DNA from: Microbotryum violaceum
Lineage: Eukaryota
Assembly: GCA_001244265.2 (NCBI GenBank)
Contig: CDLV01000018.1
Span: 682,001 to 746,000 of the forward strand
DNA: 64,000 nt
Direction: 5' to 3'
Shown: positions 2,891 through 64,000 of the stretch, piece by piece
Layout of the letters: each line of letters begins with the position of its first letter
Numbering within the stretch: the stretch's first letter is position 1
Notes under the pieces: model-generated
Seen by the model: the letters and a program-made list of their open reading frames with translations, nothing else
Told to the model about the DNA's origin: nothing
Database searches by the model: none
Program-made: the position numbers and the translations under genes

Positions 2891-2997
2891 CGCGTGGAGG
2901 GTGCGATTCAAGCGAAGCGCGACGGGTACCCCCTGTCGCGACCCGACCGCGTGGAGGGTGCGATTCAACCGACGGGTACCCCCCTGTCGCGACCCGA
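2891..2997. repeat. Two-copy ~55-bp tandem repeat
   Basis: CGCGTGGAGGGTGCGATTCAA...CGACGGGTACCCCC.TGTCGCGACCCGA occurs twice. Confidence 0.85.
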
Positions 2998-12716: not shown

Positions 12717-13635
12717 TCACCCCTTGTTACTCCGCCCCTTGGTCCCCTTGTTCTGCTTCGCATACTTGGCCTTGACCGCCTTACTCCCCGTAGCCCTCTC
12801 CTTCTTCTCCGCAGAGGACATCTTCATTCTCGCCACGGGCTTGTTCTTCACTCGACGTTTATGCGTCGAACTGGTCGTGGTTGGAGTGGAGGTGGATCTG
12901 GGAGGTGGTGGCGGGGGAAGGTCGCGGTCGAGTGGGAGGGCGGGGGAAGGGGAGCGAGAGAGGGAGAAGGGTTCGATCGCGACTGTTGTGACGAGGTCGG
13001 TCGATTCAAAGGTCGTTGTAGGCGCGGGATCAGGGGTATTGGGGTCGAGACCGTCGTCGTCATTCTCGGATTCGGAGAAGGCTTCATCGTCGGAGCCACC
13101 GGCGTCTGGGTGGGAGAAGGTGATACATTTTCAGAGAGGGCTCTCGGGTCTAGTCGAAGCTGCACGGGGACTGACCCCCATACATAACCTTTGCATTCCT
13201 GACGTTTTGAGCGGCTCGTTCCTTTCTCTCATCTCGAATCTGTTCGCGTCGCGTCGGGGATAGAGCTGATCAGTCACCCATGAACCCCAAGCCAACTCTC
13301 CGTTGTAGCTCCCCGATCTCTTACATTCCTGCGCATCTCGTTCAATTCCTGCCTCTCGCGGTCGATCGCCTTGTTACGCACCGCCGCCTCGCGCGCCTTT
13401 TTACGCTTACTGAAGCCCGTCAAGAACTCTCTGTGAACAACACAATACGATTATAGCTCAGTGGTATATATGTATACCGCACCCCTTGGACTCTGCACAC
13501 TCACTTCCTCGCGTCAGGGTCGAAGACTACCTCCTTGACCTTCTTGACTTTGGCGGGCCTTCCGGATTTGTTCAACACCGGGTGAGAGATGGTGCCCACG
13601 GGGGTGTTGGACTTGCGTTTGGTGTGTTTGGGCAT
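12717..13635 (-). CDS. RRP17: Nucleolar rRNA-processing protein, Rrp17/Nop25 family; exons 13635-13505, 13430-13325, 13239-13176, 13105-12717
   Basis: Spliced product contains VKEVVFDPDARKEFLTGFSKRK, an acidic middle and a basic C-terminus. Three GT-AG introns restore one open frame. Confidence 0.82.
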
Positions 13636-14099
13636 CGTGGTGGAGGGTGGGGGGAGGGAGGGAAGACTGCGGTGCACGGACGAGGCGCAGCGTAAGCGAC
13701 GATGACGGGATAGACGGCGACGGCGTCCGTTGAGCAGGTGTGAGCGGTGTACACCTCTTTGTCCCTTGGCTTGATGATCGCACCCGGATAACTGAGCGGG
13801 GGAGACTGAGCGCCGACGAGGATGAACTAGCAGTGACAGCACGAGAGGCGTGAGCAAGACAACAGTCGAGCACGAGATCGACTTCAACCAGTCCGCCCGC
13901 AGCGCTGCGAAGCGCAATCAATTCGACTCGTCGGCTTATTACACTCTGTTAACTCGTTATTACACCCGAGCTCACCGCAGAACAGCGAATGAGAAACCGG
14001 AGGAATCAAAGGCAAAAAGGATCTCTCCAACGGGTAGGCAACAACAACAAGCAGAAAAAAAGTGAAAAAAAAGTGAAACAAATAATTTTCTTCCGTTTG

Positions 14100-14111
14100 A
14101 AAAAAGAGAAA
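14100..14111 (-). terminator. RNA polymerase III T-tract terminator of the tRNA-Gly gene
   Basis: TTTCTCTTTTTT immediately 3' of the tRNA on the minus strand. Confidence 0.7.
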
Positions 14112-14182
14112 TGCGCCGACTGGGACTCGAACCCAGGTCTAGACAATGGCAATGTCCAAGTATACCCCTAACCCACCGGCGC
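14112..14182 (-). tRNA. tRNA-Gly (anticodon GCC), intronless, 71 nt
   Basis: GCGCCGG/TCGGCGC acceptor stem, anticodon arm GGACA-TTGCCAT-TGTCT, T arm CTGGG-TTCGAGT-CCCAG, discriminator A. Confidence 0.96.
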
Positions 14183-14244
14183 AGATGAATTAAAAGGCGT
14201 AGTTTGGCCATATGATTCTTGCGCAACTCCCAAAACGTAAAAAA

Positions 14245-14395
14245 TCGCACTTTTGCGGGCGGTTTGTGTTATCATCGTAGTCTTCCATCTAGTTTTTCCG
14301 TAGGCCAAAACAGGGGGAACAGGAACTGGGGCAATATGATGAACGTTTTCTACAAAAAAAATAAATAAATAAATAAATAAAAAATAAATAAAAAA
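14245..14395 (+). mobile_element. LINE family C copy C1: last ~109 nt plus an A/(AAAT)n tail; first element of the array
   Basis: Matches the 3' end of copies C2-C4 (...GGGCAATATGATGAACGTTTTCTAC). Tail at 14354-14395. Confidence 0.9.
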
Positions 14396-14396
14396 T

Positions 14397-15287
14397 TACA
14401 CGGCTGTTCAACGCATGTTCGGACTTCCGAAGCTCAAGGCCAGTCTACGCGATCAAGAAGGAGCGGGGAGGACGATCGAAATATTCACCGGGCTGGTCTT
14501 GGAGATGATCAGCAGCGGGAGGTGGGGGATGCAGAAGTGGGGACGAAGATGGAGGGTGTTGTGAGGAGGAGGATCATCTTGGAGGAGAGGTTGAAGCTGA
14601 GGGCGGGAGGAGCTTGGGGAGGAGAGGGCAGTAGAGGCTGGGTTCGACTTTCCCCCACCACCACCACACACACACACCAAATTCTCGTGACATCATTTTC
14701 TCCTACTGTACACTAAATAGATCGCTTTCATCTTTCATTTGTTACAGGTTCACCGTTGCGGATCATGGACCATCTCGCGATTTGGCGTCGACTCGGTGTG
14801 GCTCGCGCTCTTCGGCTTCGGGGTTCTGAGTCAAGGGAGGGATCAGCGGACACAGGCAGAAAGTCGGCTTTGAGGGGCCAGGGACTGCCGATGGGGGAGG
14901 TTTTGAGGGACCTTCACCGCGTCTTGTTGTGACTGAGCAGAGACTTGGAGCGTCGAGGGTCGTGGTGGTTGCGCAGTCGTGCTCTTGTCTTCGTCTCGAC
15001 CGAGTGGGAAGTGGCTGTGGGGTGGGCCTTCTGTCGTTAGTACATTTCTTTTCTTTCTTTTTTTCTCTTCATCTCTCTTTCTCTCTCTCATTAGTCTCCT
15101 GGGGGGAGCAACCGCTTGGCTAGGGCATTTGAATCCGAATCTCGGATTGGTGGACTTGGCTCGTTTCTCGCACTTTTGCGGGCGGTTTGTGTTATCATCG
15201 TAGTCTTCCATCTAGTTTTTCCGTAGGCCAAAACAGGGGGAACAGGAACTGGGGCAATATGATGAACGTTTTCTACAAAAAAAAAAA
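14397..15287 (+). mobile_element. LINE family C copy C2: ORF2 C-terminal remnant, 3' UTR and poly(A)
   Basis: YTAVQRMFGLPKLKASL...IEIFTGLVLEMISSGRW...LEERLKLR aligns with family A YTALQIEHGLPRLRARL...IRAFIALALDTLSNRRW...LKERLELR. Poly(A) at 15277-15287. Confidence 0.85.
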
Positions 15288-15292
15288 GAATG

Positions 15293-16081
15293 ACGCCGCA
15301 GGGAAGCGAGGCCCCTGCGGAAGGTATACCCCGCCCTTGTCTCCAGCCGCGCGCCGGTGTTGACGGCCACCCGCCCGCGCTGCACCCGACCGAGGCGTGT
15401 CCAATGGACTGTCACATGCTCCGTGACTTTCCCCGGAAATCTCTGGATTGTGTGTTTTTGTGCGAAGTAGGCCTGTTTCGCAGTTGCAGTCATTGGAATG
15501 GGGGTGATCTGGGGTCGTGCGGTCGCGAGGGGGGCCGACTTTGGTAACCGAAAAGGGGTTTGGAATCCGCGGTGGAGATCCAGCGCAGACGGGTACAAGG
15601 GGTATGTGATTGCTGCGGTCGCAGGGGTTACATTCCCCCTTTGGACCACGTGAATCATTTGGATTGAGCGGGATGTTTGTGCCATCGGAGGCCTTGTTCG
15701 ACGCGTCTCAAAGAATTAAGGGGCTTCAAGGAGTATGGCGGTCTCAGGGGGGGCTGAAGTCAAAAGATCGAAGAAGGTTCAACTATACGACTATAATCGG
15801 ATTCGCCTGTACAACACATGTACCATCACCAACGACTCATCCATCTTTTCCCGATTCCTTGTGTATAATCTTCAACCTTCCTTTCATTCGTCTCTGGGAG
15901 GGAGCAACCGTGGGTGGGGGGACTTGAACTCGGATGTATCGGGTTGGTCTGTTCTGCTAGTTACAACGCATCAAGCGGCGGTTGTGGTCATCATCGTGCA
16001 TGCTGGGTAGCATCTCCTTTAGTTCCGTAGGGGGTTTTCTCGTCTTGCAAATTAGCGATGAGTTTCATACAAAAAAAAAAA
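15293..16081 (+). mobile_element. LINE family A copy A1: 3' UTR fragment plus poly(A)
   Basis: Near-identical to 30448-31234; ends GATGAGTTTCATAC-A11. Confidence 0.92.
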
Positions 16082-17107
16082 CTGACCTGGAACGTCAACA
16101 GGGGCTTCAATACCCCTGAACGACGTCGTCTGCTTCTTTCGTATCTCACTTCGCTCACACCTCCCCCTTCTGCTATCCTTCTCCAGGAACATAATGTTCC
16201 TAAAGCACGGCAACCTCACATACGCCACGAGTACGCCCAGTCCCACCAGGGCGAGGCCTACTTTTCTCAACACTGCCTCACTTTGATTCTAAGCTCTTCT
16301 CCTCTTCTCGGTGGTCATCGTCGCACGCGTCAGTCTCTTGGCGGGCGCTTACTCGTGACCACCTTCGATGTGCGGGGTTCGACGGACGTCGTCGAACTCA
16401 ACAATATCTACGCTCCGGTTCAACCCGCCGAGCGCCTCCTCTTCTTCACCTCCCTTCACTTTCCGGCGACCGTCTCCTCTCATATTCGGTTCATCGCGGG
16501 AGATCTCAACGACTGCCCTATTCCCGCGGTGGATCGAGCGCAACAGGTGGACCGCCCGAACACCCACCACTGGCCTGTGCTTATGTCTCGGCTCGACGGG
16601 GCGTACACGGATGCCATTCGGCTCATGCACCCACTGTCGCCGGCGACCACGCGCCCACATCTCAGCAAGGACGGCCAGCTCATTTCGCGCGCGCGCATCG
16701 ACTTTGTTCTGGTGCAGCGGCGACACGAGCGACGGGTCGTTTCTGCTTCTACTCTGTACAATATCTCTCGATCCATGTCGGATCATCGACCGGTTACGGT
16801 CACATTTAGGCTGCGCGCAAGTGGTGCCGAGGTCGAAGAGGAGCTCTGCCTTCCCCAGGCGGCTCATTTTCTGACCCGCATCAACTCGTCGACCTTCAGA
16901 CACGCCGAGTTTAAGGAGTTCGTCACTCGTCTCCTTGAGCAGGCACCGTCTGGGGATCCGGTCGCGGACCTTCAGCGCGTACTCTCGGAGTCTCGGGTCC
17001 AAGCTCTCGAGCTGTCTCGGCGTCTGTTTCGGGAGCGCAACGCCCTCGAAATGATGCTGGTATCTCGACTGCAGGACATTGAGTCTCGTCGGGTGCTGAG
17101 CCCCTTC
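16082..17107 (+). CDS. LINE A ORF2, APE endonuclease portion (5' of the copia insertion)
   Basis: Within ORF 16058-17152; joins 26853 in frame once the copia and one TSD are removed. Confidence 0.9.
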
Positions 17108-17303
17108 TGTTGTTGTAGGAGCGTCTCTAGTTACGTGGCGTCTGATAGATGACCTATTGTGAGATAGTGGGTCGCTAAAGGTCAATCGACTGTAACAGAG
17201 CGACTAGGCGAGATGTGATATCGAGTGCGTGGTGATGTATTTCAACTAACCTATTGTGAGATAGTGGGTCGCTAAAGGTCAATCGACTGTAACAGAGCGA
17301 CTA

Positions 17304-17468
<165 letters not shown>

Positions 17469-17471
17469 CTA

Positions 17472-26494
<9,023 letters not shown>

Positions 26495-26667
26495 TTACGT
26501 GGCGTCTGATAGATGACCTATTGTGAGATAGTGGGTCGCTAAAGGTCAATCGACTGTAACAGAGCGACTAGGCGAGATGTGATATCGAGTGCGTGGTGAT
26601 GTATTTCAACTAACCTATTGTGAGATAGTGGGTCGCTAAAGGTCAATCGACTGTAACAGAGCGACTA

Positions 26668-26796
<129 letters not shown>

Positions 26797-26852
26797 CTAA
26801 GACCATAAGTCCCTCTGGACCGCAGACCCCACTAATTTCCCACAACACCTTC

Positions 26853-29849
26853 GATATTATCGACTGGACGAACACCCACGACGCTCTCACCAAACTTGTG
26901 AACGAGCGAGCAAGGCAGTCCCGGATCAGGGCGCACGTGCCCGAGATTGCATCCGAGGAACGTCTCAGTCGTCCGGTACATGCCAAACTGGCTGCTCGGT
27001 CCCGGGATGTGAAGTTTCAGAGTATCCGGCTCGCTGATGGCGAGCTCACCACTGACATGGAGCGCACGCTCGAGCACACCCATTCTCATTTCCAGCAGCA
27101 CTACCTTGTCGAAGCGAAGGATCCGGAACAGGTCGTGACGATGCGGGATGAGCTCTTGGGACCCATCAGATCAGCAAGACCTTGTGACGACCCGCTTTCC
27201 GACGCTCGCTTCCTTCGGCGGTTCTCGAATTCGCACGCCGACATTCTGGCCGAGCCCATCAGCGAGGCCGAGGTGCTCGCAGCGATTCGAACCACGCACG
27301 AAGGTCGATCTCCGGGTCCTTCAGGGGTCCCCTATGAGATGTATCGAGCCTGCCCCCTGCTTTGGGCCCCTCTCTTGACTCGAGCCTACAACGAGCTGAT
27401 TACTCGAGGCTCCCTTACTCCACAACAGAGCCAGGCCAATGTGCGCCTCTTGTTCAAACACAACAAACCTGGTGCAGCGCGGTGCGACCTCAAATCGTAT
27501 CGTCCGATCACCTTGCGGGAATGCGACTACAAGATCTTCACCAAGGTCTACGTGGCTCGTCTGAACCGGATCCTCCCCGATGTTCTTCCGGCCGGACAGC
27601 ATGGGTTCGTCAAGGGGCGAAGACCAGCGGACGCGGCTTTGCATCTGCGGCTCCTGATCGATGAGATTAGGGGTCGTGGGGCAGAGTTCCCGACAGCAGC
27701 GCTCCTCTCCCTGGATCAGAGCTCGGCTTACGACATGGTCGAGCATGACTGGGTCTTTGCGGTGTTTGAGGCTCTCGGCGCGCCGGAATCTTTCCAGCGC
27801 GTCTTGCGGATGCTCTACAACGGCGAGACGTCCACAGCGCGGTACATTGTCAACGGTTTCCTTACCGAGACGGTGCGACTCCTGTGCGGTCTTGGCCAGG
27901 GCGATCCTCTCTCTTCTTCTGTCTGGGATGTGGTATTCCAACCCTTCCTTGATTCTCTCAGTCGACGCAACATTGCGCTGACTATCACTCTTCCGGAGCT
28001 GGCTCATCGTCCGCAGACTCGATGCATCACCAATTTGGCGTTCGCGGATGACGCCGTCGTCGCTGTTGCTGGGCCGGAAGCTATTGCTTCGCTCGAGGCG
28101 TTAGCTCGGGATTGGCGACTCGCGACGAACGGACGTCTAAACACCGACAAAACTGTGGTGATGCCATTGGGCGCGACGTTGTGGGATCGCGCGGACTTGT
28201 CCAAACTGTCGTTCGTGGCACCGGACGAGTCTCTTCCCTGGATCGGTCTCCAGTTTGCGCCTGACGGCAACAACAGGCTGGGATTCCATGATCTTGAGCG
28301 AAGGGTTGATCGAGTGATTCTATCGGTGCGCGACCGATGGATGACGCACCATACCCGGGCTTTCTATCTTAACCGCTACGGCATCTCCAAGGTGCTGCAC
28401 TCTCTCTCCGCCGACATCCCGCCATCCGACGTGATCAAGTCGATCGAGCGCAAGCTTGCTGACTTTGTGAAGGGAGGCCCGCGGCGCAGCGACTACAAGC
28501 AATCGGTCGTCTTCACGGCACGGGCACGAGGCGGTCTCAGCGTCGTGAGCATCCAGGATGTGGTGGATTCAGTCTCGGTACGGATCTGGGATGTGCTGGC
28601 CGGCGGGTCAACTGCGATTTGGGGCGATCTGGCTCGGAGTTCCATCCGGCGAGCGCTTCCGACCTTTGACTTTGCTGCGGATCTGTGGACGTGGAGGAAC
28701 GCCGACGCACCCCGGGAGCTACATCCCCGCTGGCGAGCGGTGCTCTCGGTCGCTGAACGCTACCCTGCCGTCGTCGATCCTGCCAAACTTTCGGTCTCCA
28801 ATCTTCTTTCTCTTTCCCCCCTCCAACCGGGTCTGCATGACTCGCGGGCGTTCTCGGAGCAGGATAAGCGTTTGGCGAAGCATTTCAGTTTCGAACGCAC
28901 CATCGCCGACATCTATGCTCGAGCTCAATACCCCGCAGCTCCAACGGTGCCCTGGACCCCTGAGAAGCATCCCCAAGGCGACGGCTCGGAGCTGTCCAAC
29001 CTTTGGCAATGGAAGCGCGATCAAGTCCAGGCGTGGATCCAGGTCGCAGGCGATCGCTTCATCCCGCCGCTTCCGCCTCCTGTTCCCGTCCTCGCACGTC
29101 GACCACCCGTCATTCGTGTCGTTGGAGCACCTGGAGCCCGGGCCGGCGGTCCCCTCGAGCACATCTTGCCCAGAGCGACTCCGGTCGGCATGCCTGATCA
29201 AAGACTTCCCCTCCCCTCCGCCCCCTTGCTTGCTAATCAGTGGAGAATGTTGAGCTTGGACAGACCCTACACCATTGCGCGACTTCGACGCGTCATCAAC
29301 CATCGACGTTTCGACGACACACAACGCCCTGGATCACTCGCCACACCCAAAGAAAGGCGACTCTTCTGGGGGTGGTTCCACACCGGGCCCGCCACGGCCC
29401 GCGAGCGCGAGGTGCACTTCAAGCTGGCGTACCACTTCACGCCAACGCGGAAGCGCCAGTTTGTGCAGCGGCATGGCGACTCGGCCTGCTGCCTTGTGCA
29501 GGCATGCAGCCTGGCAGGGGTGGAGGATGACTTTACTCACTTTTGGCATGATTGCCCTGACTCTTCTCAATTTTGGCAAGCAGCTAGGTCCATTATCTGC
29601 GACGCGCTGGGGGTCGTGTCGATCCTCGACCTCGACTACACGGCACTTCAGATCGAGCACGGCCTCCCTCGACTGCGCGCTCGCCTTCCGACGTCGAAAA
29701 AGCGTCCAATCCGCGCCTTCATTGCGCTGGCGCTCGACACTCTCAGCAACCGACGCTGGGATCTCCATCGCCACGCCAGAGCGATGTCGAGCATGGACAA
29801 GGAGATGGCGGGACTGAAGGAGAGGTTGGAGCTCAGATTGGCGCGATGA
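26853..29849 (+). CDS. LINE A ORF2, reverse transcriptase and C-terminal zinc-knuckle portion
   Basis: Open frame containing QGDPLSS, LAFADD and CCLVQACSLAGVEDDFTHFWHDC. Confidence 0.93.
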   Translation, partial: DIIDWTNTHDALTKLVNERARQSRIRAHVPEIASEERLSRPVHAKLAARSRDVKFQSIRLADGELTTDMERTLEHTHSHFQQHYLVEAKDPEQVVTMRDELLGPIRSARPCDDPLSDARFLRRFSNSHADILAEPISEAEVLAAIRTTHEGRSPGPSGVPYEMYRACPLLWAPLLTRAYNELITRGSLTPQQSQANVRLLFKHNKPGAARCDLKSYRPITLRECDYKIFTKVYVARLNRILPDVLPAGQHGFVKGRRPADAALHLRLLIDEIRGRGAEFPTAALLSLDQSSAYDMVEHDWVFAVFEALGAPESFQRVLRMLYNGETSTARYIVNGFLTETVRLLCGLGQGDPLSSSVWDVVFQPFLDSLSRRNIALTITLPELAHRPQTRCITNLAFADDAVVAVAGPEAIASLEALARDWRLATNGRLNTDKTVVMPLGATLWDRADLSKLSFVAPDESLPWIGLQFAPDGNNRLGFHDLERRVDRVILSVRDRWMTHHTRAFYLNRYGISKVLHSLSADIPPSDVIKSIERKLADFVKGGPRRSDYKQSVVFTARARGGLSVVSIQDVVDSVSVRIWDVLAGGSTAIWGDLARSSIRRALPTFDFAADLWTWRNADAPRELHPRWRAVLSVAERYPAVVDPAKLSVSNLLSLSPLQPGLHDSRAFSEQDKRLAKHFSFERTIADIYARAQYPAAPTVPWTPEKHPQGDGSELSNLWQWKRDQVQAWIQVAGDRFIPPLPPPVPVLARRPPVIRVVGAPGARAGGPLEHILPRATPVGMPDQRLPLPSAPLLANQWRMLSLDRPYTIARLRRVINHRRFDDTQRPGSLATPKERRLFWGWFHTGPATAREREVHFKLAYHFTPTRKRQFVQRHGDSACCLVQACSLAGVEDDFTHFWHDCPDSSQFWQAARSIICDALGVVSILDLDYTALQIEHGLPRLRARLPTSKKRPIRAFIALALDTLSNRRWDLHRHARAMSSMDKEMAGLKERLELRLAR

Positions 29850-31236
29850 AGTAGATGTCCCTCCCTCCCTATCCAAGCAAAAACCAAACCCCCAAAAAAT
29901 CACAAGTCCCTTTTCCCTCCTTCTCAATCTCCAAAATGTCTCCCAAACACGCCAGAATACTGAACCTGTTTTCTCTCGCTCTTTTTGCCATTCCTCCTCA
30001 TAGGCTTCCGTACTCCCCAGGAGCCTCGGGTTCTTTGCGCCGGCGGGCATTGTCGCCCTTGGTTCGAGCTTCTGCCACATCACGATGACACACAGCGAAA
30101 ACGGATCCCCTTGGCCCTCTCCTGGACTATACCGTGAGTTTTCCACTCCTCTCAAGGGCCGGGTCTGTCTTCTCTTTCGGTCGAGCGACCCCGTGATCTC
30201 CTGTTCAAGGCCGGCACAAACTGCCTGCGTGGCTCGCCTCTCCTTGCTTTGCTGCTCGCTCGGAGTCGCGGCCCCGCGGCGGGTGACTCGGGTACCGAAC
30301 CGCCATACACATCCACACTCGAGCGAGGTCCCACCCAATGACATCACCGTCGTGGGCCTCATGCTCCTTCTTTCCCCAGTATCTGCGGTGATTGGGAACC
30401 ACCTGCACGTACAAGGGGACTCGAGTGTGCGTTCCGAGATTGGGAGTACGCCGCAGGGAAGCGAGGCCCCTGCGGAAGGTATACCCCGCCCTTGTCTCCA
30501 GCCGCGCGCCGGTGTTGACGGCCACCCGCCCGCGCTGCACCCGACCGAGGCGTGTCCAATGGACTGTCACATGCTCCGTGACTTTCCCCGGAAATCTCTG
30601 GATTGTGTGTTTTTGTGCGAAGTAGGCCTGTTTCGCAGTTGCAGTCATTGGAATGGGGGTGATCTGGGGTCGTGCGGTCGCGAGGGGGGCCGACTTGGTA
30701 ACCGAAAAGGGGTTTGGAATCCGCGGTGGAGATCCAGCGCAGACGGGTACAAGGGGTATGTGATTGCTGCGGTCGCAGGGGTTACATTCCCCTTTGGACC
30801 ACGTGAATCATTTGGATTGAGCGGGATGTTTGTGCCATCGGAGGCCTTGTTCGACGCGTCTCAAAGAATTAAGGGGCTTCAAGGAGTATGGCGGTCTCAG
30901 GGGGGGCTGAAGTCAAAAGATCGAAGAAGGTTCAACTGTACGACTATAATCGGATTCGCCTGTACAACACATGTACCATCACCAACGACTCATCCATCTT
31001 TTCCCGATTCCTTGTGTATAATCTTCAACCTTCCTTTCATTCGTCTCTGGGAGGGAGCAACCGTGGGTGGGGGGGACTTGAACTCGGATGTATCGGGTTG
31101 GTCTGTTCTGCTAGTTACAACGCATCAAGCGGCGGTTGTGGTCATCATCGTGCATGCTGGGTAGCATCTCCTTTAGTTCCGTAGGGGGTTTTCTCGTCTT
31201 GCAAATTAGCGATGAGTTTCATACAAAAAAAAAATA

Positions 31237-31881
31237 CCCCACCACCACTACACACACACACACACCAAATTCTCGTGACATTATTTTCTCCTACTGTACA
31301 CTAAATAGATCGCTTTCATCTTTCATTTGTTACAGGTTCATCGTTGCGGATCATGGACCATCTCGCGATTTGGCGTCGACTCGGTGTGGCTCGCGCTCTT
31401 CGGCTTCGGGGTTCTGAGTCAAGGGAGGGATCAGCGGACACAGGCAGAAAGTCGGCTTTGAGGGGCCAGGGACTGCCGATGGGGGAGGTTTTGAGGGACC
31501 TTCACCGCGTCTTGTTGTGACTGAGCAGAGACTTGGAGCGTCGAGGGTCGTGGTGGTTGCGCAGTCGTGCTCTTGTCTTCGTCTCGACCGAGTGGGAAGT
31601 GGCTGTGGGGTGGGCCTTCTGTCGTTAGTACATTTCTTTTCTTTCTTTTTTTCTCTTCATCTCTCTTTCTCTCTCTCATTAGTCTCCTGGGGGGGAGCAA
31701 CCGCTTGGCTAGGGCATTTGAATCCGAATCTCGGATTGGTGGACTTGGCTCGTTTCTCGCACTTTTGCGGGCGGTTTGTGTTATCATCGTAGTCTTCCAT
31801 CTAGTTTTTCCGTAGGCCAAAACAGGGGGAACAGGAACTGGGGGCAATATGATGAACGTTTTCTACAAAAAAAAAAAAAAA
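31237..31881 (+). mobile_element. LINE family C copy C3: 3' UTR fragment plus poly(A)
   Basis: Matches 14653-15287; poly(A) at 31867-31881. Confidence 0.92.
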
Positions 31882-40068
<8,187 letters not shown>

Positions 40069-40070
40069 TT

Positions 40071-43000: not shown

Positions 43001-44518
43001 TTCATTGCGCTGGCGCTCGACACTCTCAGCAACCGACGCTGGGATCTCCATCGCCACGCCAGAGCGATGTCGAGCATGGACAAGGAGATGGCGGGACTGA
43101 AGGAGAGGTTGGAGCTCAGATTGGCGCGATGAAGTAGATGTCCCTCCCTCCCTATCCAAGCAAAAACCAAACCCCCAAAAAATCACAAGTCCCTTTTCCC
43201 TCCTTCTCAATCTCCAAAATGTCTCCCAAACACGCCAGAATACTGAACCTGTTTTCTCTCGCTCTTTTTGCCATTCCTCCTCATAGGCTTCCGTACTCCC
43301 CAGGAGCCTCGGGTTCTTTGCGCCGGCGGGCATTGTCGCCCTTGGTTCGAGCTTCTGCCACATCACGATGACACACAGCGAAAACGGATCCCCTTGGCCC
43401 TCTCCTGGACTATACCGTGAGTTTTCCACTCCTCTCAAGGGCCGGGTCTGTCTTCTCTTTCGGTCGAGCGACCCCGTGATCTCCTGTTCAAGGCCGGCAC
43501 AAACTGCCTGCGTGGCTCGCCTCTCCTTGCTTTGCTGCTCGCTCGGAGTCGCGGCCCCGCGGCGGGTGACTCGGGTACCGAACCGCCATACACATCCACA
43601 CTCGAGCGAGGTCCCACCCAATGACATCACCGTCGTGGGCCTCATGCTCCTTCTTTCCCCAGTATCTGCGGTGATTGGGAACCACCTGCACGTACAAGGG
43701 GACTCGAGTGTGCGTTCCGAGATTGGGAGTACGCCGCAGGGAAGCGAGGCCCCTGCGGAAGGTATACCCCGCCCTTGTCTCCAGCCGCGCGCCGGTGTTG
43801 ACGGCCACCCGCCCGCGCTGCACCCGACCGAGGCGTGTCCAATGGACTGTCACATGCTCCGTGACTTTCCCCGGAAATCTCTGGATTGTGTGTTTTTGTG
43901 CGAAGTAGGCCTGTTTCGCAGTTGCAGTCATTGGAATGGGGGTGATCTGGGGTCGTGCGGTCGCGAGGGGGGCCGACTTGGTAACCGAAAAGGGGTTTGG
44001 AATCCGCGGTGGAGATCCAGCGCAGACGGGTACAAGGGGTATGTGATTGCTGCGGTCGCAGGGGGTTACATTCCCCCTTTGGACCACGTGAATCATTTGG
44101 ATTGAGCGGGATGTTTGTGCCATCGGAGGCCTTGTTCGACGCGTCTCAAAGAATTAAGGGGCTTCAAGGAGTATGGCGGTCTCAGGGGGGGCTGAAGTCA
44201 AAAGATCGAAGAAGGTTCAACTGTACGACTATAATCGGATTCGCCTGTACAACACATGTACCATCACCAACGACTCATCCATCTTTTCCCGATTCCTTGT
44301 GTATAATCTTCAACCTTCCTTTCATTCGTCTCTGGGAGGGAGCAACCGTGGGTGGGGGGACTTGAACTCGGATGTATCGGGTTGGTCTGTTCTGCTAGTT
44401 ACAACGCATCAAGCGGCGGTTGTGGTCATCATCGTGCATGCTGGGTAGCATCTCCTTTAGTTCCGTAGGGGGTTTTCTCGTCTTGCAAATTAGCGATGAG
44501 TTTCATACAAAAAAAAAA
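40071..44518 (+). mobile_element. LINE family A copy A3, 5'-truncated downstream of the endonuclease domain
   Basis: Near-identical to A2 from 17040 onward, with an empty site where copia copy 1 sits in A2; poly(A) at 44509-44518. Confidence 0.95.
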
Positions 44519-44520
44519 TA

Positions 44521-45163
44521 CCCCACCACCACTACACACACACACACACCAAATTCTCGTGACATTATTTTCTCCTACTGTACACTAAATAGATCGCTTT
44601 CATCTTTCATTTGTTACAGGTTCATCGTTGCGGATCATGGACCATCTCGCGATTTGGCGTCGACTCGGTGTGGCTCGCGCTCTTCGGCTTCGGGGTTCTG
44701 AGTCAAGGGAGGGATCAGCGGACACAGGCAGAAAGTCGGCTTTGAGGGGCCAGGGACTGCCGATGGGGAGGTTTTGAGGGACCTTCACCGCGTCTTGTTG
44801 TGACTGAGCAGAGACTTGGAGCGTCGAGGGTCGTGGTGGTTGCGCAGTCGTGCTCTTGTCTTCGTCTCGACCGAGTGGGAAGTGGCTGTGGGGTGGGCCT
44901 TCTGTCGTTAGTACATTTCTTTTCTTTCTTTTTTTCTCTTCATCTCTCTTTCTCTCTCTCATTAGTCTCCTGGGGGGGAGCAACCGCTTGGCTAGGGCAT
45001 TTGAATCCGAATCTCGGATTGGTGGACTTGGCTCGTTTCTCGCACTTTTGCGGGCGGTTTGTGTTATCATCGTAGTCTTCCATCTAGTTTTTCCGTAGGC
45101 CAAAACAGGGGGAACAGGAACTGGGGGCAATATGATGAACGTTTTCTACAAAAAAAAAAAAAA
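44521..45163 (+). mobile_element. LINE family C copy C4 (duplicate of C3)
   Basis: Same 5' junction as C3 (AAAATACCCCACCACCACTACAC). Confidence 0.92.
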
Positions 45164-47521
45164 CCTCGTCAAGCGAGAGTGGCGCTTGACGAGCCCTTCA
45201 CCCTCCTCGAGGTTGAAGCGGCGTTGAAGAAGACGGATTCGGGGCGATCACCGGGGCCCTCGGGCATTCCGTACGAGCTCTTCAAGGCGCTGCCAACCTA
45301 CTTTGCTCCCAAGCTGTTGGATTTATTCAACTCGATTTGGGAGGGGGGTAAAATGACGGCGTCCTTGGCAGAGGGGCTGGTGCGGCTTTTGCCCAAGAAC
45401 AAACCGGGGGCCAATCTGAAATCACTGGGGGCATATCGACCGATCACACTGCGCGAGACGACCTACAAGGTCCTCAGCAAGGTCTTGGTGGCGCGACTCA
45501 ATGGGGTGCTCGGCGAGCTTTTGCCGCCGGCGCAACACGGGTTCATGCCATCAAGACGTTCAGCGGACGCGGGAAGTCATCTCACTCTCCTTCTCGAAAA
45601 ACTCAAGTCGCTAGGCACTGAAGTTTTCCCCGAGGGCGCCCTCTTGTCCTTGGATCAGCAGAGCGCGTACGATCGGGTCGATCACGCATGGATCTTCGAC
45701 GTCTTCGAGGCCTTTGGCTTTGGTGAGCGTTTCATTTCCCTGCTGCGCGCTCTGTACGATCTCGAGACTCTGGGGGTGCGCTACCTCATCAATGGGTTCC
45801 CCACGGAGTTGGTGCGGTTGCTGTGTGGTCTCGGTCAGGGGGATCCCCTCTCGTGCCCGGTTTGGAACATCACGTTCCAGCCCTTCCTCGACGCCCTCGT
45901 TCGGCGCGGGATCGCGCTCGACCTGCAGAAGGTGTGGCCAGGGGGCCGCGTGCGCAGCTTACGCATCTGGCGTTTGCCGACGATGCTGTGGTGGTAGTGG
46001 AGTCACCGGCGGCATTGTCGAAGCTGGAAACGCTGTCGCAGACGTGGTACGAGGCAACCAACGGGAAGACCAACACGGACAAGACGCTGGTGCTACCACT
46101 CGGACCGAACTGGCTTCGGGACGAGACTGCGCAGGCGCTGCCAACGGTGCAGGAGGGGGAGAGCTTCAAGTGGTGCGGCTATGCCTTCTTTCGCCACGGT
46201 GACTCGAAACTGTTTTGGACCCATGTTCTTGACAGGATCAAGGCCAAGACCCGCGCCGCTGAAGACCGGACACTTTCGCCGAGTGGGAAGGTCTTCTATG
46301 CCAACGCTCACATCATCTCGACGGTCCTCCACGTGCTGTCCTTCGACATACCGCCTCAATGGTTCATTAAGGCGGCGGAGACAGCACTTACGGATTTTGT
46401 TTGGGGAGGAGCAGGGCGAAATACCGTCGCTCGCGATTTCGTGTTCCAGGCTCGGGAGGACGGTGGCTTGGGCTTGATTTCAATCGGCGACATCGTTCAT
46501 TCGGTGGCGCTTCGATTTTGGGATGCTGTGGCGGGCTCGAACGAGGCGATCTGGGCGCCCCTAGCTCGCGAGAGCTGGAGGTCCCTCGTCGCTGCGACCC
46601 GCGATTTCAGTCCGTGGGGTTCTTCAGCAGCACGGCTCGGGTCGAGAAGCTGTATCGCGACTCGACGCGCTGGGGGGCAGTCGTTGCAGCTGCCAGGGTC
46701 ACAGTTCCAACCATCAAGTCCGAACTCCTTACGCTCCCCGAATTGCTCTCGCTTCCGCCTCGCCTCCCTTCACTCTATGCTGAAGGTGCCAAGCACGCAT
46801 ATGACGATGCGGACGCAGTGGCGAAGTTTGCGCAGATCGCGGACCTGTACTGGAGGGACGAAGGGAAGGGCTGGGCTCTGGTTGGTCATCGACGCGGGTT
46901 CTGGCAGCACTCTAAGGAACCCGCCCTACAGCACGAGCACGTGTGGTCGCGCGTGGGTCAGTTGCTCAAGGCGAAAGCCTTGCTGCCCAAGACCGCGTTG
47001 CGACCTGCTCGGATACCTCTCAAGGAGGCTCCCCGTCCTCGGTGCTTCAACTTCTTTGGGCTCACCCGACCGTTCACTATTCGCAAGCTTCGTCGGCTTG
47101 TGAACGTGGTTCGGTTCCCAGGGAGGGAGGATCGTGTCAAGCGTTTCCGTGATGGGACTTCTCAGAGCGATAGGAAGCGCTTCTGGAGATGGCTTCATGA
47201 CCGGTTCGCGTCTGCTGTGGAGCAGGACACCCACTGGCGGCTCATGTACGACGTGACACCGACGCGCAAGAGGCAGCATACTCAGGGTCATGCCTCTTCG
47301 CCGACGTGTCTGTTCTGCGGCAACGATGCAGCGGTCATCGAGACGGTGTCGCACTATCCTCGAGTGCGCGTACTCGACCAGCTTCTGGGGTGGGGTGCTT
47401 CGCATTCTGTTCGACAAGCTGGGCATCGAGGATACCGACGTCGATCCGTCGACGTTCACTCCGGAGCAGCTGACTATGGGGCTCCCCCTTTTGCGGGATC
47501 GTGGGAGAACGACCTCGAAAT

Positions 47522-52291
<4,770 letters not shown>

Positions 52292-53601
52292 GAAATGGAT
52301 GTGGGTTCGGCTGGCTTGCGCGATCGGCTTCCAGCGGCTGCACCTGCTCCGCTGGCGCGTTCATCAGCGGTTCGAGCTGGACAAGGTCGTGGCCCCTCCC
52401 TCGCTCCCCAGTGCACTCAGAGCGTTTGAGCGAGATTTTCTCTCTCGAGCGGGTTTTGTGCCTGGGGCTCGAGATTGGGAGGTGTGATGACCGAGTTAAG
52501 TCCTTCCTTCCCATTTTCCTCCCCTCCTTTCCTCCCTTCTTTTTCGGAGGTCGACTCTTCTTTTAGAAGCTGACTGTCTTGAAACTTGTTGCGCAGTGGA
52601 AGGCTGTGCACCTCTCCCTCTCTCTCTCTACTTTGCGCAGTATGGGTTTTTTGTTCTTGAATGGATCGGCAAGCCAGGTCGATTGTCTTTGCGTTGGAGG
52701 CTTCGTGAAGTTTTTCCCTCTCCTTTCCCCCCTTTTTCCCTTCCCTTCCTCTTCTCGTTCCTGTTGCTCGGTTGTTGACTACGCTTCAGCCACTTCTCCT
52801 TTTACTCCTAAGCCGTGTGTTGGATTCCGTTGAATGGTTCGTTCGTTCGCGTTGGTCAAGATCTACGGCATGGCTCGGGAAGGAAGGTCGCTCGTTTCTG
52901 GTCAATATCCTCGCGTCAACGCGAGGCTCGTTTCGTTGTACTGGATCGCTTTTCTCTCGGCCCGACGGCTCAACAGCCAGCACTCGAGATTCAGCCAAGG
53001 GAGGACATCAGGCGCTGTCGGGGTGACGAGTAGCTGGGGCTTGGCTGCGGCCTGTTAGTCCCTGGGGACCTCTACCTCCGGCTTCGACCCCCTACCTTGG
53101 CCCCTCGGGTGTGTTCCCCTCCTCTCTGTCTTAGTATTCCTGGTTCTCCGTATCCCCAGTCGTGACTTTCTGTATATTCTCCCCTTCTTTCTCTAGGCGC
53201 TCTTGCCTGGCTTTCGAGTATCTTCGCTCCCGCTCTTGGGACGTGAAGCGGCAGCAGTACTCACCGCCCGTTGGAGTCCGCGTTAGGTGCTCGGCGGGTT
53301 TTGATCTGCGCAGCGCTCTTTGCGCGCAGGGGTTTGACTTTCACCCAACTGCTTGCCGTCGTTGCTTTATAACCTCCTTTAGCTCTTTTTGTAGCGGTCC
53401 CAGCCAACCCGAAGGATTGCAATTTATGAGCCCCAGTCAAAAAAAAAAAATTACGCCCTCGAGATGATGCTGGTATCTCGACTGCAGGACATTGAGTCTC
53501 GTCGGGTGCTGAGCCCCTTCGATATTATCGACTGGACGAACACCCACGACGCTCTCTCCAAGCTTGTGAACGAGCGAGCAAGGCAGTCCCGGATCAGGGC
53601 G

Positions 53602-58369
<4,768 letters not shown>

Positions 58370-61300
58370 GGGCGCACGTTCCCGAGATTGCATCCGAGGA
58401 ACGTCTCAGTCGTCCGGTACATGCCAAACTGGCTGCTCGGTCCCGCGATGTGAAGTTTCAGAGTATCCGGCTCGCTGATGGCGAGCTCACCACTGACATG
58501 GAGCGCACGCTCGAGCACACCCATTCTCATTTCCAGCAGCACTACCTTGTCGAAGCGAAGGATCCGGAACAGGTCGTGACGATGCGGGATGAGCTCTTGG
58601 GACCCATCAGATCAGCAAGACCTTGTGACGACCCGCTTTCCGACGCTCGCTTCCTTCGGCGGTTCTCGAATTCGCACGTCGACATTCTGGCCGAGCCCAT
58701 CAGCGAGGCCGAGGTGCTCGCAGCGATTCGAACCACGCACGAAGGTCGATCTCCGGGTCCTTCAGGGGTCCCCTATGAGATGTATCGAGCCTGCCCCCTG
58801 CTTTGGGCCCCTCTCTTGACTCGAGCCTACAACGAGCTGATTACTCGAGGCTCCCTTACTCCACAACAGAGCCAGGCCAATGTGCGCCTCTTGTTCAAAC
58901 ACAACAAACCTGGTGCAGCGCGGTGCGACCTCAAATCGTATCGTCCGATCACCTTGCGGGAATGCGACTACAAGATCTTCACCAAGGTCTACGTGGCTCG
59001 TCTGAACCGGATCCTCCCCGATGTTCTTCCGGCCGGACAGCCTGGGTTCGTCAAGGGGCGAAGACCAGCGGACGCGGCTTTGCATCTGCGGCTCCTGATC
59101 GATGAGATTAGGGGTCGTGGGGCAGAGTTCCCGACAGCAGCGCTCCTCTCCCTGGATCAGAGCTCGGCTTACGACATGGTCGAGCACGATTGGGTCTTTG
59201 CGGTGTTTGAGGCTCTCGGCGCGCCGGAACCTTTCCAGCGCGTCTTGCGGATGCTCTACAACGGCGAGACGTCCACAGCGCGGTACATTGTCAACGGTTT
59301 CCTCACCGAGACGGTGCGACTCCTGTGCGGTCTTGGCCAGGGCGATCCTCTCTCTTCTTCTATCTGGGATGTGGTATTCCAACCCTTCCTTGATTCTCTC
59401 AGTCGACGCAACATTGCGCTGACTATCACTCTTCCGGAGCTGGCTCATCGTCCGCAGACTCGATGCATCACCAATTTGGCGTTCGCGGATGACGCCGTCG
59501 TCGCTGTTGCTGGGCCGGAAGCTATTGCTTCGCTCGAGGCGTTAGCTCGGGATTGGCGACTCGCGACGAACGGACGTCTGAACACCGACAAAACTGTGGT
59601 GATGCCATTGGGCGCGACGTTGTGGGATCGCGCGGACTTGTCCAAACTGTCGTTCGTGGCACCGGACGAGTCTCTTCCCTGGATCGGTCTCCAGTTTGCG
59701 CCTGACGGCAACAACAGGCTGGGATTCCATGATCTTGAGCGAAGGGTTGATCGAGTGATTCTATCGGTGCGCGACCGATGGATGACGCACCATACCCGGG
59801 CTTTCTATCTTAACCGCTACGGCATCTCCAAGGTGCTGCACTCTCTCTCCGCCGACATCCCGCCATCCGACGTGATCAAGTCGATCGAGCGCAAGCTTGC
59901 TGACTTTGTGAAGGGAGGCCCGCGGCGCAGCGACTACAAGCAATCGGTCGTCTTCACGGCACGGGCACGAGGCGGTCTCAGCGTCGTGAGCATCCAGGAT
60001 GTGGTGGATTCAGTCTCGGTACGGATCTGGGATGTGCTGGCCGGCGGGTCAACTGCGATTTGGGGCGATCTGGCTCGGAGTTCCATCCGGCGAGCGCTTC
60101 CGACCTTTGACTTTGCTGCGGATCTGTGGACGTGGAGGAACGCCGACGCACCCCGGGAGCTACATCCCCGCTGGCGAGCGGTGCTCTCGGTCGCTGAACG
60201 CTACCCTGCCGTCGTCGATCCTGCCAAACTTTCGGTCTCCAATCTTCTTTCTCTTTCTCCCCCCTCCAACCGGGTCTGCATGACTCGCGGGCGTTCTCGG
60301 AGCAGGATAAGCGTTTGGCGAAGCATTTCAGTTTCGAACGCACCATCGCTGACATCTATGCTCGAGCTCAATACCCGCAGCTCCAACGGTGCCCTGGACC
60401 CTGAGAAGCATCCCCAAGGCGACGGCTCGGAGCTGTCCAACCTTTGGCAATGGAAGCGCGATCAAGTCCAGGCGTGGATCCAGGTCGCAGGCGATCGCTT
60501 CATCCCGCCGCTTCCGCCTCCTGTTCCCGTCCTCGCACGTCGACCACCCGTCATTCGTGTCGTTGGAGCACCTGGAGCCCGGGCCGGCGGTCCCCTCGAG
60601 CACATCTTGCCCAGAGCGACTCCGGTCGGCATGCCTGATCAAAGACTTCCCTCCCCTCCGCCCCCTTGCTTGCTAATCAGTGGAGAATGTTGAGCTTGGA
60701 CAGACCCTACACCATTGCGCGACTTCGACGCGTCATCAACCATCGACGTTTCGACGACACACAACGCCCTGGATCACTCGCCACACCCAAAGAAAGGCGA
60801 CTCTTCTGGGGTGGTTCCACACCGGGCCCGCCACGGCCGCGCGAGCGCGAGGTGCACTTCAAGCTGGCGTACCACTTCACGCCAACGCGGAAGCGCCAGT
60901 TTGTGCAGCGGCATGGCGACTCGGCCTGCTGCCTTGTGCAGGCATGCAGCCTGGCAGGGGTGGAGGATGACTTTACTCACTTTTGGCATGATTGCCCTGA
61001 CTCTTCTCAATTTTGGCAAGCAGCTAGGTCCATTATCTGCGACGCGCTGGGGTCGTGTCGATCCTCGACCTCGACTACACGGCACTTCAGATCGAGCACG
61101 GCCTCCCTCGACTGCGCGCTCGCCTTCCGACGTCGAAAAAGCGTCCAATCCGCGCCTTCATTGCGCTGGCGCTCGACACTCTCAGCAACCGACGCTGGGA
61201 TCTCCATCGCCACGCCAGAGCGATGTCGAGCATGGACAAGGAGATGGCGGGACTGAAGGAGAGGTTGGAGCTCAGATTGGCGCGATGAAGTAGATGTCCC

Positions 61301-62670
61301 TCCCTCCCTATCCAAGCAAAACCAAACCCCAAAAAATCACAAGTCCCTTTTCCCTCCTTCTCAATCTCCAAAATGTCTCCCAAACACGCCAGAATACTGA
61401 ACCTGTTTTCTCTCGCTCTTTTTGCCATTCCTCCTCATAGGCTTCCGTACTCCCAGGAGCCTCGGGTTCTTTGCGCCGGCGGGCATTGTCGCCCTTGGTT
61501 CGAGCTTCTGCCACATCACGATGACACACAGCGAAAACGGATCCCCTTGGCCCTCTCCTGGACTATACCGTGAGTTTTCCACTCCTCTCAAGGGCCGGGT
61601 CTGTCTTCTCTTTCGGTCGAGCGACCCCGTGATCTCCTGTTCAAGGCCGGCACAAACTGCCTGCGTGGCTCGCCTCTCCTTGCTTTGCTGCTCGCTCGGA
61701 GTCGCGGCCCCGCGGCGGGTGACTCGGGTACCGAACCGCCATACACATCCACACTCGAGCGAGGTCCCACCCAATGACATCACCGTCGTGGGCCTCATGC
61801 TCCTTCTTTCCCAGTATCTGCGGTGATTGGGAACCACCTGCACGTACAAGGGGCTCGAGTGTGCGTTCCGAGATTGGGAGTACGCCGCAGGGAAGCGAGG
61901 CCCCTGCGGAAGGTATACCCCGCCCTTGTCTCCAGCCGCGCGCCGGTGTTGACGGCCACCCGCCCGCGCTGCACCCGACCGAGGCGTGTCCAATGGACTG
62001 TCACATGCTCCGTGACTTTCCCCGGAAATCTCTGGATTGTGTGTTTTTGTGCGAAGTAGGCCTGTTTCGCAGTTGCAGTCATTGGAATGGGGGTGATCTG
62101 GGGTCGTGCGGTCGCGAGGGGGGGCCGACTTGGTAACCGAAAAGGGGTTTGGAATCCGCGGTGGAGATCCAGCGCAGACGGGTACAAGGGGTATGTGATT
62201 GCTGCGGTCGCAGGGGGTTACATTCCCCCTTTGGACCACGTGAATCATTTGGATTGAGCGGGATGTTTGTGCCATCGGAGGCCTTGTTCGACGCGTCTCA
62301 AAGAATTAAGGGGCTTCAAGGAGTATGGCGGTCTCAGGGGGGGCTGAAGTCAAAAGATCGAAGAAGGTTCAACTGTACGACTATAATCGGATTCGCCTGT
62401 ACAACACATGTACCATCACCAACGACTCATCCATCTTTTCCCGATTCCTTGTGTATAATCTTCAACCTTCCTTTCATTCGTCTCTGGGAGGGAGCAACCG
62501 TGGGTGGGGGGACTTGAACTCGGATGTATCGGGTTGGTCTGTTCTGCTAGTTACAACGCATCAAGCGGCGGTTGTGGTCATCATCGTGCATGCTGGGTAG
62601 CATCTCCTTTAGTTCCGTAGGGGTTTTCTCGTCTTGCAAATTAGCGATGAGTTTCATACAAAAAAAAAAT

Positions 62671-64000
62671 TGGCAGCACTCTAAGGAACCCGCCCTACAG
62701 CACGAGCACGTGTGGTCGCGCGTGGGTCAGTTGCTCAAGGCGAAAGCCTTGCTGCCCAAGACCGCGTTGCGACCTGCTCGGATACCTCTCAAGGAGGCTC
62801 CCCGTCCTCGGTGCTTCAACTTCTTTGGGCTCACCGCGACCGTTCACTATTCGCAAGCTTCGTCGGCTTGTGAACGTGGTTCGGTTCCCAGGGAGGGAGG
62901 ATCGTGTCAAGCGTTTCCGTGATGGGACTTCTCAGAGCGATAGGAAGCGCTTCTGGAGATGGCTTCATGACCGGTTCGCGTCTGCTGTGGAGCAGGACAC
63001 CCACTGGCGGCTCATGTACGACGTGACACCGACGCGCAAGAGGCAGCATACTCAGGGTCATGCCTCTTCGCCGACGTGTCTGTTCTGCGGCAACGATGCA
63101 GCGGTCATCGAGACGGTGTCGCACTATCCTCGAGTGCGCGTACTCGACCAGCTTCTGGGGTGGGGTGCTTCGCATTCTGTTCGACAAGCTGGGCATCGAG
63201 GATACCGACGTCGATCCGTCGACGTTCACTCCGGAGCAGCTGACTATGGGCTCCCCCTTTTGCGGGATCGTGGAGAACGACCTCGAAATGGATGTGGGTT
63301 CGGCTGGCTTGCGCGATCGGCTTCCAGCGGTTGCACTTGCTGCGCTGGCACGTCCACCAGCGGTTCGAGAAGGACCGCGTCGTGGCCCCTCCTCGATCCC
63401 CAGTGCACTTAGAGCGTTCAAGCGAGATTTTCTCTCTCGGAGGTTTTGTTCCTGGGCTCGAGATTGGGAGGTGTGATGACCGAGTTAAGTCCTTCCTTCC
63501 CATTTTCCTCCCCTCCTTTCCTCCTTCTTTTTCGGAGGTCGACTCTTCTTTTAGAAGCTGACTGTCTTGAAACTTGTTGCGCAGTGGAAGGCTGTGCACC
63601 TCTCCCTCTCTCTCTCTACTTTGCGCAGTATGGGTTTTTTGTTCTTGAATGGATCGGCAAGCCAGGTCGATTGTCTTTGCGTTGGAGGCTTCGTGAAGTT
63701 TTTCCCTCTCCTTTCCCCCCTTTTTCCCTTCCCTTCCTCTTCTCGTTCGTGTTGCTCGTTGTTGACTACGCTTCAGCCACTTCTCCTTTTACTCCTAAGC
63801 CGTGTGTTGGATTCCGTTGAATGGTTCGTTCGTTCGCGTTGGTCAAGATCTACGGCATGGCTCGGGAAGGAAGGTCGCTCGTTTCTGGTCAATATCCTCG
63901 CGTCAACGCGAGGCTCGTTTCGTTGTACTGGATCGCTCTCGGCCCCGACGGCTCAACAGCCAGCACTCGAGATTCAGCCAAGGGAGGACATCAGGCGCTG
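62671..64000 (+). mobile_element. LINE family B copy B3, independent 5' truncation, runs off the window end
   Basis: Matches 38293 onward, with a cluster of substitutions near 63330-63460. Confidence 0.92.

Follow-up and report, generated by a model that had tools for sequence, protein, structure and literature searches.

Which feature of a genome leads retrotransposons that lack long terminal repeats (non-LTR elements) to line up head to tail beside a tRNA gene is the question raised by a stretch of 64,000 nucleotides of the fungus Microbotryum violaceum (assembly GCA_001244265.2, contig CDLV01000018.1, positions 682,001 to 746,000 of the forward strand), which is called the window in the following and in which all positions are counted. 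A first-pass annotation of this window had described an array of long interspersed nuclear elements (LINEs) of three families, here termed A, B and C, that starts next to a tRNA-Gly gene, and had interpreted it as the product of elements which, like TRE5 of Dictyostelium, insert upstream of tRNA genes and push older copies outward. Upon closer analysis the observation is partly confirmed, while for the tRNA-targeting interpretation the data at hand cannot tell. The anatomy of the array argues for some form of targeting, and the reading that we favour, with about an even chance of being correct, is insertion primed on poly(A) tracts, in which the tails of resident copies would have served as the next targets and the array would have been enlarged by recombination and by Ty1/copia elements.

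Junction anatomy of the LINE array

The first 14,244 positions of the window are ordinary gene-bearing DNA, with, for example, an RCC1-like gene at 10103-12298, and from 14245 to the window end (49,756 bp) the sequence is repeat throughout. As described in the first-pass annotation, unique sequence ends about 62 bp before the +1 position of tRNA-Gly: the spacer covers 14183-14244, the first repeat base is 14245 and the first LINE piece thus begins at -63 from tRNA +1. With the copia elements removed, 11 LINE pieces are left, every one on the + strand and every one truncated at the 5' end, which follow each other from the tRNA gene as B'', B', A'', A_long, B, C, A2, B duplicate, C duplicate, A3 (equal to A') and C''. 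None of the 11 pieces in the window holds another LINE within it, which confirms the earlier claim that LINEs are not nested in LINEs here; copia elements, though, do sit in LINE bodies.

The places at which the pieces meet are uniform. Ten of the 11 pieces end within the window, and their tails are all A-rich and include 8-15 consecutive A; each piece equally follows an A-run, which is A6 before the first piece and A10-15 before the others. At 10/10 LINE-LINE junctions in the window, poly(A) is followed by 0-5 other nucleotides, with GAATG, TT and T as the extra nucleotides seen, and then by a 5'-truncated LINE, so the previously noted spacing of 0-5 nt holds at every junction. A/T runs of at least 8 nt number ten inside the array, all of them + strand LINE tails, and none was found within the LINE or copia bodies of the array. 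B'' has TAAAAAA and A' has A(n)TT at both flanks, the latter being a possible, if weak, target-site duplication (TSD) of which two nucleotides are informative; flanks of this form are what TSDs that arise within A-tracts should look like.

As set out below, eight of the pieces represent independent LINE insertions. All eight lie on the + strand (P = 2 x 0.5^8 = 0.008) and all are found exactly at tails, though almost the whole of the available target consists of LINE bodies, and the earlier judgement that the pattern goes beyond random insertion is thereby upheld. Five copia elements in the same block have LINE or copia bodies as their targets and lie in both orientations (2 + and 3 -), from which it follows that LINE bodies are open to insertion. 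The single orientation and the tail positions of the LINEs, together with the copia elements as an internal control, indicate that the array owes its origin to targeting of one kind or another.

Recombination, copia insertions and the age of the copies

The array has not been built by LINE insertion alone. Without the copia elements it shows a tandem repeat that extends over 13 kb and has a period of 8609 bp, and between the two repeat units B and C show 0/642 and 0/3509 differences, respectively, with identical truncation points. A2 and A3 share the same 5' truncation point as well. Within alignment columns 970-3084, 14 sites separate A_long from A2 and A3, which are identical there, whereas at columns 4064 and 4067 it is A_long and A2 that agree and A3 that differs. 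This split site pattern identifies A2 as a recombinant to which the distal copy contributed the 5' part and A_long the 3' part, the crossover interval being 42192-43169. An unequal crossover between two A copies has duplicated the 8.6-kb B-C-A block, with 44520-45163, 45164-53452 and part of 40071-44519 as the products. Three of the 11 pieces are therefore duplication copies, which leaves eight independent LINE insertions; the 11 truncated non-LTR copies of the first-pass annotation stand as pieces and do not stand as 11 insertions. As the copia sites differ between the two units, the copia elements must have entered after the duplication, and a duplicate created by the assembly can be dismissed as the source of the repeat.

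The five Ty1/copia elements account for 23,950 of the 49,756 bp, almost half of the repeat block, as determined by self-comparison and Pfam. Perfect 5-bp TSDs in 5/5 elements and near-identical LTR pairs, with 0-1 mismatches per pair, characterize them as genuine and very recent insertions. The earlier statement that all copies are on the + strand consequently holds for the LINEs and not for the block as a whole, in which the copia elements, unmentioned before, occupy both strands (2 + and 3 -).

Same-family pairwise divergence is 0.13-1.43% and shows no trend along the array. Between A_long, which is proximal to the tRNA gene, and the distal A' there are 14 coding differences, 9 synonymous and 5 non-synonymous, and derived amino-acid states, polarised by homologous proteins, occur in both of them. 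Mostly synonymous differences with derived states on both sides imply that A_long and A' reflect different active source elements and not insertion age. The age gradient expected from an outward pushing of older copies was looked for and none was found. An age gradient as discriminator between models was therefore dropped, there being neither a trend nor derived states restricted to one A copy. Equally, TSD logic for the order of insertions was dropped, as targeting of the tRNA gene and targeting of tails give identical junctions.

Public sequencing data were consulted for alternative arrangements. Among the matches listed from four public runs there is no contig that bridges the tRNA gene and the array or skips a piece, none that crosses a junction in the form of an empty site, and no joint within the array, which speaks neither for nor against empty alleles. 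The contigs of these four runs end within the tRNA gene (14105-14182), a multi-copy gene, and 22 of the 23 public-run rows among the matches listed include part of 12800-16300. Beyond the tails of A and B, contig ends continue into other sequence located elsewhere (30-nt stubs).

How might the array have been built?

In the poly(A)-primed reading, A, B and C would start reverse transcription on T-runs opposite A-tracts in a Zorro3-like manner. The first copy might have fallen by chance into a short A-run 62 nt upstream of tRNA-Gly; the left boundary, cgtAAAAAA, directly abuts the LINE, in line with seeding in an A-run. The DNA being GC-rich here, resident copies with their poly(A) tails of 10-15 nt would subsequently offer by far the best targets, and with tails as the best targets later copies would arrive at tails, in the same orientation and usually 5'-truncated, which gives a pure head-to-tail array. 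Next would come the unequal crossover between two A copies that duplicated the 8.6-kb block and last the entry of the five copia elements, two steps which are shown above; it is the order of the events that we infer. The tRNA gene would merely mark the place of seeding and how near to it insertions are tolerated. A start of the array at an A-rich site had been named beforehand in the first-pass annotation as speaking against its own proposal, and the array does begin at an A-run.

The model for this reading is Zorro3 of Candida albicans, an element of the L1 superfamily, for which the available text of two publications describes integration into poly(A) tracts on the basis of empty alleles and marked elements, a preference also held in S. 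cerevisiae and apparently intrinsic to the element (PMC7175516, PMC3956500). Like the elements of the array, Zorro3 is fungal, APE-type and L1-like with an A-tract on both sides, a feature present here in 8/8 independent pieces. Unlike them, Zorro3 copies are dispersed and often full-length, and the available parts of PMC7175516 and PMC3956500 do not mention head-to-tail arrays, while in the window the copies of three families crowd at one another's tails and every copy is 5'-truncated.

Several observations weigh against insertion primed on poly(A) tracts. The seed A-run consists of only 6 A today. The adjacent 14.2 kb contain four A/T runs that are longer (8-9 nt) and yet without a LINE, among them an A8 that flanks the same tRNA gene on its opposite side. 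Furthermore, the divergent start at -62 is the geometry of TRE5 and NLTR-B and would here be a coincidence, for which a rough estimate gives far less than 1% for each seeding event if the selection of the window in the first-pass annotation is left out of account. Poly(A) targeting by A, B and C is what we infer from a single array, as neither an empty allele nor a second array was seen, and the likeness to Zorro3 is drawn from descriptions, not from sequence relatedness.

The short seed run, the empty longer runs and the geometry of the start lend their weight to the explanation proposed at the outset, according to which A, B and C would recognise the tRNA transcription complex, for example TFIIIB via ORF1, and integrate some 60 bp upstream of the tRNA gene, with their 5' end towards it, each newer copy pushing older ones outward. 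The geometry was correctly described: the LINE 5' ends face the tRNA gene, and the start of the array is separated from tRNA +1 by 62 nt on the upstream side, in divergent orientation (LINE on +, tRNA on -), which is one locus and strictly concerns only the piece nearest to the tRNA gene. According to the available text of the sources, TRE5 and NLTR-B are located upstream of tRNA genes at distances of 44-54 bp and 39-64 bp, respectively, with transcription running in the opposite orientation (PMC5911963), so that 62 nt is within the range of NLTR-B and near that of TRE5 (PMC5911963, PMC5006619). In fact, TRE5-A of Dictyostelium discoideum and NLTR-B of Polysphondylium pallidum resemble the elements of the array as LINEs with APE and reverse transcriptase (RT) domains that are divergent from and upstream of a tRNA gene. 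That three related families have made eight independent insertions at one tRNA gene while longer A-runs nearby are empty, and that the seed A-run is just 6 nt, also fits a role of the gene. Equally, tRNA targeting is stated to have arisen at least six times in dictyostelids (PMC5006619), with a TRE element at 61% of tRNA genes and TRE5 ORF1 binding TFIIIB (PMC5006619, PMC5911963), and by analogy a further origin in a compact genome might not be far-fetched. However, the window has a single tRNA locus, the array boundary is itself an A-run, and every junction feature is equally accounted for by targeting of tails; both models predict the same flanks because the upstream A-run in the tRNA model acts like a previous tail. 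An age gradient is not seen, with derived states in both A_long and A' and less than 1.5% between proximal and distal copies, and the count is weakened as three of the eleven 'insertions' are copies made by recombination. In contrast to TRE5, one locus was seen here, the junction is inside an A-run and the window has no ORF1, as no LINE copy there extends that far 5'. The literature adds to these doubts: the available part of a review tabulates non-LTR elements that target RNA polymerase III (Pol III) genes only in dictyostelids (PMC5911963). The novelty check called for earlier found no tRNA-targeting non-LTR element reported in fungi in the literature searched; work on Microbotryum non-LTR elements and tRNA yielded nothing on targeting, the sources available on non-LTR insertion upstream of tRNA genes concern dictyostelid LINEs as well as LTR elements of yeasts and dictyostelids, and the word 'tRNA' occurs 0 times in the main text of the main paper on the dynamics of transposable elements (TEs) in Microbotryum. 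A metagenome scan with a single protein as query gave 2 LINE loci with 26-27% identity and 0 tRNA genes, which are too distant to bear on A, B and C. On balance, recognition of the tRNA gene is less likely than insertion into poly(A) tracts, and we regard it as rather unlikely.

Two further explanations were considered. In one or a few events of target-primed reverse transcription, the RT might leave the LINE RNA early and jump to the poly(A) end of the next template, so that one insertion creates several truncated copies as a concatemer. The 0-5 extra nucleotides at the junctions resemble non-templated additions, the copies are without exception very young and much alike, and RT template switching is described for Zorro3 insertions in S. 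cerevisiae in the available text of PMC7175516; against this, the A(n)TT on both sides of A' looks like the TSD of a separate insertion (weakly so, with 2 nt), the LINE tails are uniformly short, and some 26 kb of LINE DNA from 8 templates would be extreme for a single event. The different source lineages of A_long and A' are compatible with template jumping and not predicted by it, and as a whole this origin appears improbable. Alternatively, insertion might not have been targeted at all, the array having arisen by recombination or segmental duplication alone or by random insertions filtered by selection beside a safe tRNA gene. One 8.6-kb tandem duplication by unequal crossover has been shown here, and Cryptococcus Cnl1 arrays expand and contract, possibly by recombination, according to the accessible part of bioRxiv 10.1101/2021.08.11.455996. 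However, the eight pieces are not copies of one another, because their truncation points and neighbours differ, one orientation in 8/8 insertions with every junction at a tail is not expected from random insertion, and the copia elements provide the local picture of what untargeted insertion looks like. An origin without targeting is thus largely refuted by the junction anatomy and very improbable; the probability that remains beyond poly(A) targeting, tRNA targeting and template jumping falls on other explanations.

Components and surroundings of the array

The features of the array and of its left boundary are compiled in Table 1.

Table 1 Position and characteristics of the tRNA gene, the spacer, the LINE pieces and the copia elements
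Feature	Position in the window	Strand	Characteristics
tRNA-Gly(GCC) gene	14112-14182	-	Rfam RF00005, 53.4 bits; ARAGORN 14111-14183; acceptor stem fits the Rfam bounds
Unique spacer upstream of tRNA-Gly, 62 nt	14183-14244	.	ends cgtAAAAAA, A6 = 14239-14244; left array boundary
LINE-B 3' fragment B''	14245-14397	+	125 bp + 44-nt A/(TAAA)n tail ending TAAAAAATT; 99.2% match to 15168-15287
LINE-B 3' fragment B'	14398-15287	+	890 bp; last ~50 aa of ORF2, 3' UTR, A11 tail
LINE-A 3' fragment A''	15293-16080	+	~789 bp; 5 extra nt GAATG before; poly(A) end
LINE-A copy A_long	16081-31235 (parts 16081-17107 + 26853-31235)	+	5410 bp without copia
LINE-B 3' fragment B	31236-31881	+	~640 bp
LINE-C copy	31882-40070 (parts 31882-33482 + 38160-40070)	+	3512 bp; part of RT domain to tail; copia C3 inside
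LINE-A copy A2, recombinant	40071-44519	+	4449 bp; 5' part like A3, 3' part like A_long
LINE-B fragment duplicate	44520-45163	+	0/642 mismatches to 31238-31881
LINE-C copy duplicate	45164-53452 (parts 45164-47521 + 52297-53452)	+	0/3509 mismatches; copia C4 inside
LINE-A copy A3 = A'	53453-62670 (parts 53453-53601 + 58375-62670)	+	4445 bp; copia C5 inside
LINE-C fragment C''	62671-64000	+	>= 1330 bp, continues past window end; other truncation point; 1.43% from other C copies
Copia C1	17108-26847	-	TSD CCTTC; LTR pair 0 mismatches; split by C2
Copia C2, nested in C1	20081-24949	+	TSD GAACT; 379-bp LTRs, TG..CA; 1383-aa gag-PR-IN-RT open reading frame
Copia C3	33483-38154	+	TSD CTCCC; 282-bp LTRs; inside LINE-C copy
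Copia C4	47522-52291	-	TSD GAAAT; LTRs 379 and 282 bp; inside LINE-C duplicate
Copia C5	53602-58369	-	TSD GGGCG; inside A3

Judged by their sequences, A, B and C appear to be L1-like, APE-type LINE families, and the three families of the first-pass annotation can be retained, with A encoding APE and RT, C as a relative with 35-65% protein identity to A and no DNA similarity, and B as the 3' end of a third family, of which the window holds the last ~50 codons and the 3' untranslated region (UTR); B is 98% identical to the last 50 aa of P0012/P0007. In A_long, the longest copy in the window, the truncation falls where the APE domain begins. Deletion of C1 with C2 nested in it, together with one of the TSD copies, restores an intact open reading frame of 1340 aa (ORF2), which is followed by a 3' UTR of ~1.39 kb. 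Pfam reports Exo_endo_phos (2.2e-08) in 16031-17152 and RVT_1 (3.1e-21) in 26718-29849 for family A, and the best match of the family among solved structures is human L1 ORF2p (1.3e-23, vs 2.8e-15 for R2), with no match of the APE domain to a solved structure at 1e-3. An assignment of Microbotryum LINEs to the L1 clade is found in the accessible text of PMC3956500.

The closest public proteins are all from Microbotryum, the best, from M. silenes-dioicae, being 99% identical, which identifies the host as one of the anther-smut fungi. A_long ORF2 matches its best homologue P0001 with 99% identity across the RT part and 90% across the whole of ORF2, and the APE-coding 5' kb of A_long (16081-17107) is without a second copy in the window; the lower similarity of the APE part than of the RT part to P0001 suggests mosaic subfamilies. 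In C'', 18 of the 19 mismatches to the other C copies are within the first ~125 bp (62671-62795; alignment columns 2402-2524), a cluster that could have come from a different subfamily as a patch, or else reflect a conversion tract or a switch of template. The gene models P0023 and P0030 from M. saponariae and M. silenes-dioicae join two LINE pieces of the same orientation, and the gene model P0005 joins a LINE RT to a copia RT (Pfam RVT_1 + RVT_2). These fusions are annotation artefacts that stem from the same kind of nested repeat region, and the same-orientation fusions in P0023 and P0030 hint that LINE arrays of this sort exist elsewhere.

Compared with the window, the contigs of all four public runs have one additional G at 14538, 14615, 15250, 15528, 15623, 15746 and 15915 and one base fewer at 17143. 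These 1-base differences look like homopolymer indel errors of a long-read assembly, and the frameshifts in A2 and A3 may thus be artefacts.

The copia elements have the Pfam domain order Retrotran_gag_2, rve and RVT_2, plus a protease-like barrel. According to the text available from PMC4469406, copia-like elements are the commonest TEs of M. lychnidis-dioicae, and the elements of the array share with Microbotryum Ty1/copia the same order of gag, protease-like barrel, integrase and RVT_2, the TG..CA LTRs and the 5-bp TSDs, while being unusual for their density here and for a 97-bp LTR length polymorphism. Five near-identical copia elements are found in ~26 kb of LINE DNA and 0 in the adjacent 14 kb of genes. 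Their LTRs occur in forms of 282 bp and 379 bp, which are set apart by a 97-bp internal tandem duplication, and in C4 as well as in C5 the two LTRs of one element are unequal in length.

On the gene-bearing side, tRNA-Gly(GCC) is the only tRNA of the window according to ARAGORN and Rfam, and an Rfam scan of the whole window matched nothing except tRNA-Gly. A T-run terminator, read from the sequence, is located directly downstream of the gene on its own strand. The flank also holds a direct repeat (1145-1561 / 4841-5253, 419 bp, 89% identity) and an inverted repeat (866-1007 / 2228-2365, 142 bp, 81% identity), with A8/A9 runs close by. Contigs of the public run X17 omit 13117-13210 (GT..AG ends) and 13430-13505 (CT..AC ends), which look like introns spliced from an expressed gene beside the tRNA gene, and through this omission of intron-like stretches X17 behaves as an RNA run. 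The summed depth of X17 is very high over LINE-B (14.3-15.3 kb).

Relation to known LINE arrays and outlook

LINE arrays as such are already known in fungi. Long arrays of non-LTR elements are found at chromosome ends with Zepp in Chlorella and HeT-A/TART in Drosophila. In Cryptococcus neoformans, Cnl1 forms subtelomeric arrays of 5-80 kb with non-LTR copies and fragments, as far as the available text of bioRxiv 10.1101/2021.08.11.455996 goes, and it is classed as CRE-type in that of PMC7175516. The array in the window is comparable to Cnl1 in being long, with many non-LTR copies and fragments, and dynamic via transposition and recombination. Unlike Cnl1, it consists of L1-like elements and there is no telomere repeat run of 3 or more, neither (TTAGGG)3 nor (CCCTAA)3, in the window, past the end of which (64000) the array continues. 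Unlike Cnl1, Zepp and HeT-A/TART at chromosome ends, the poly(A) ends here point away from the gene-bearing side.

Should recognition of the tRNA gene, doubtful as we consider it, be the cause of the array, a fungal tRNA-targeting LINE would be a further independent origin of the TRE5 type and the first among fungal non-LTR elements. Pol III-directed LINE integration would then extend from social amoebae to fungi, and a tractable second system would be at hand in which to study the way a transcription complex is read by an element that relies on target priming. On the other hand, if targeting of tails holds true, a simple priming preference would be sufficient for LINEs in a compact, GC-rich genome to form arrays that reinforce themselves and point in one direction. 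Unequal crossover would then enlarge such arrays, and LTR elements would find landing pads in them. Such an understanding would be useful for the annotation of repeats in Microbotryum, where gene models wrongly join LINE pieces.

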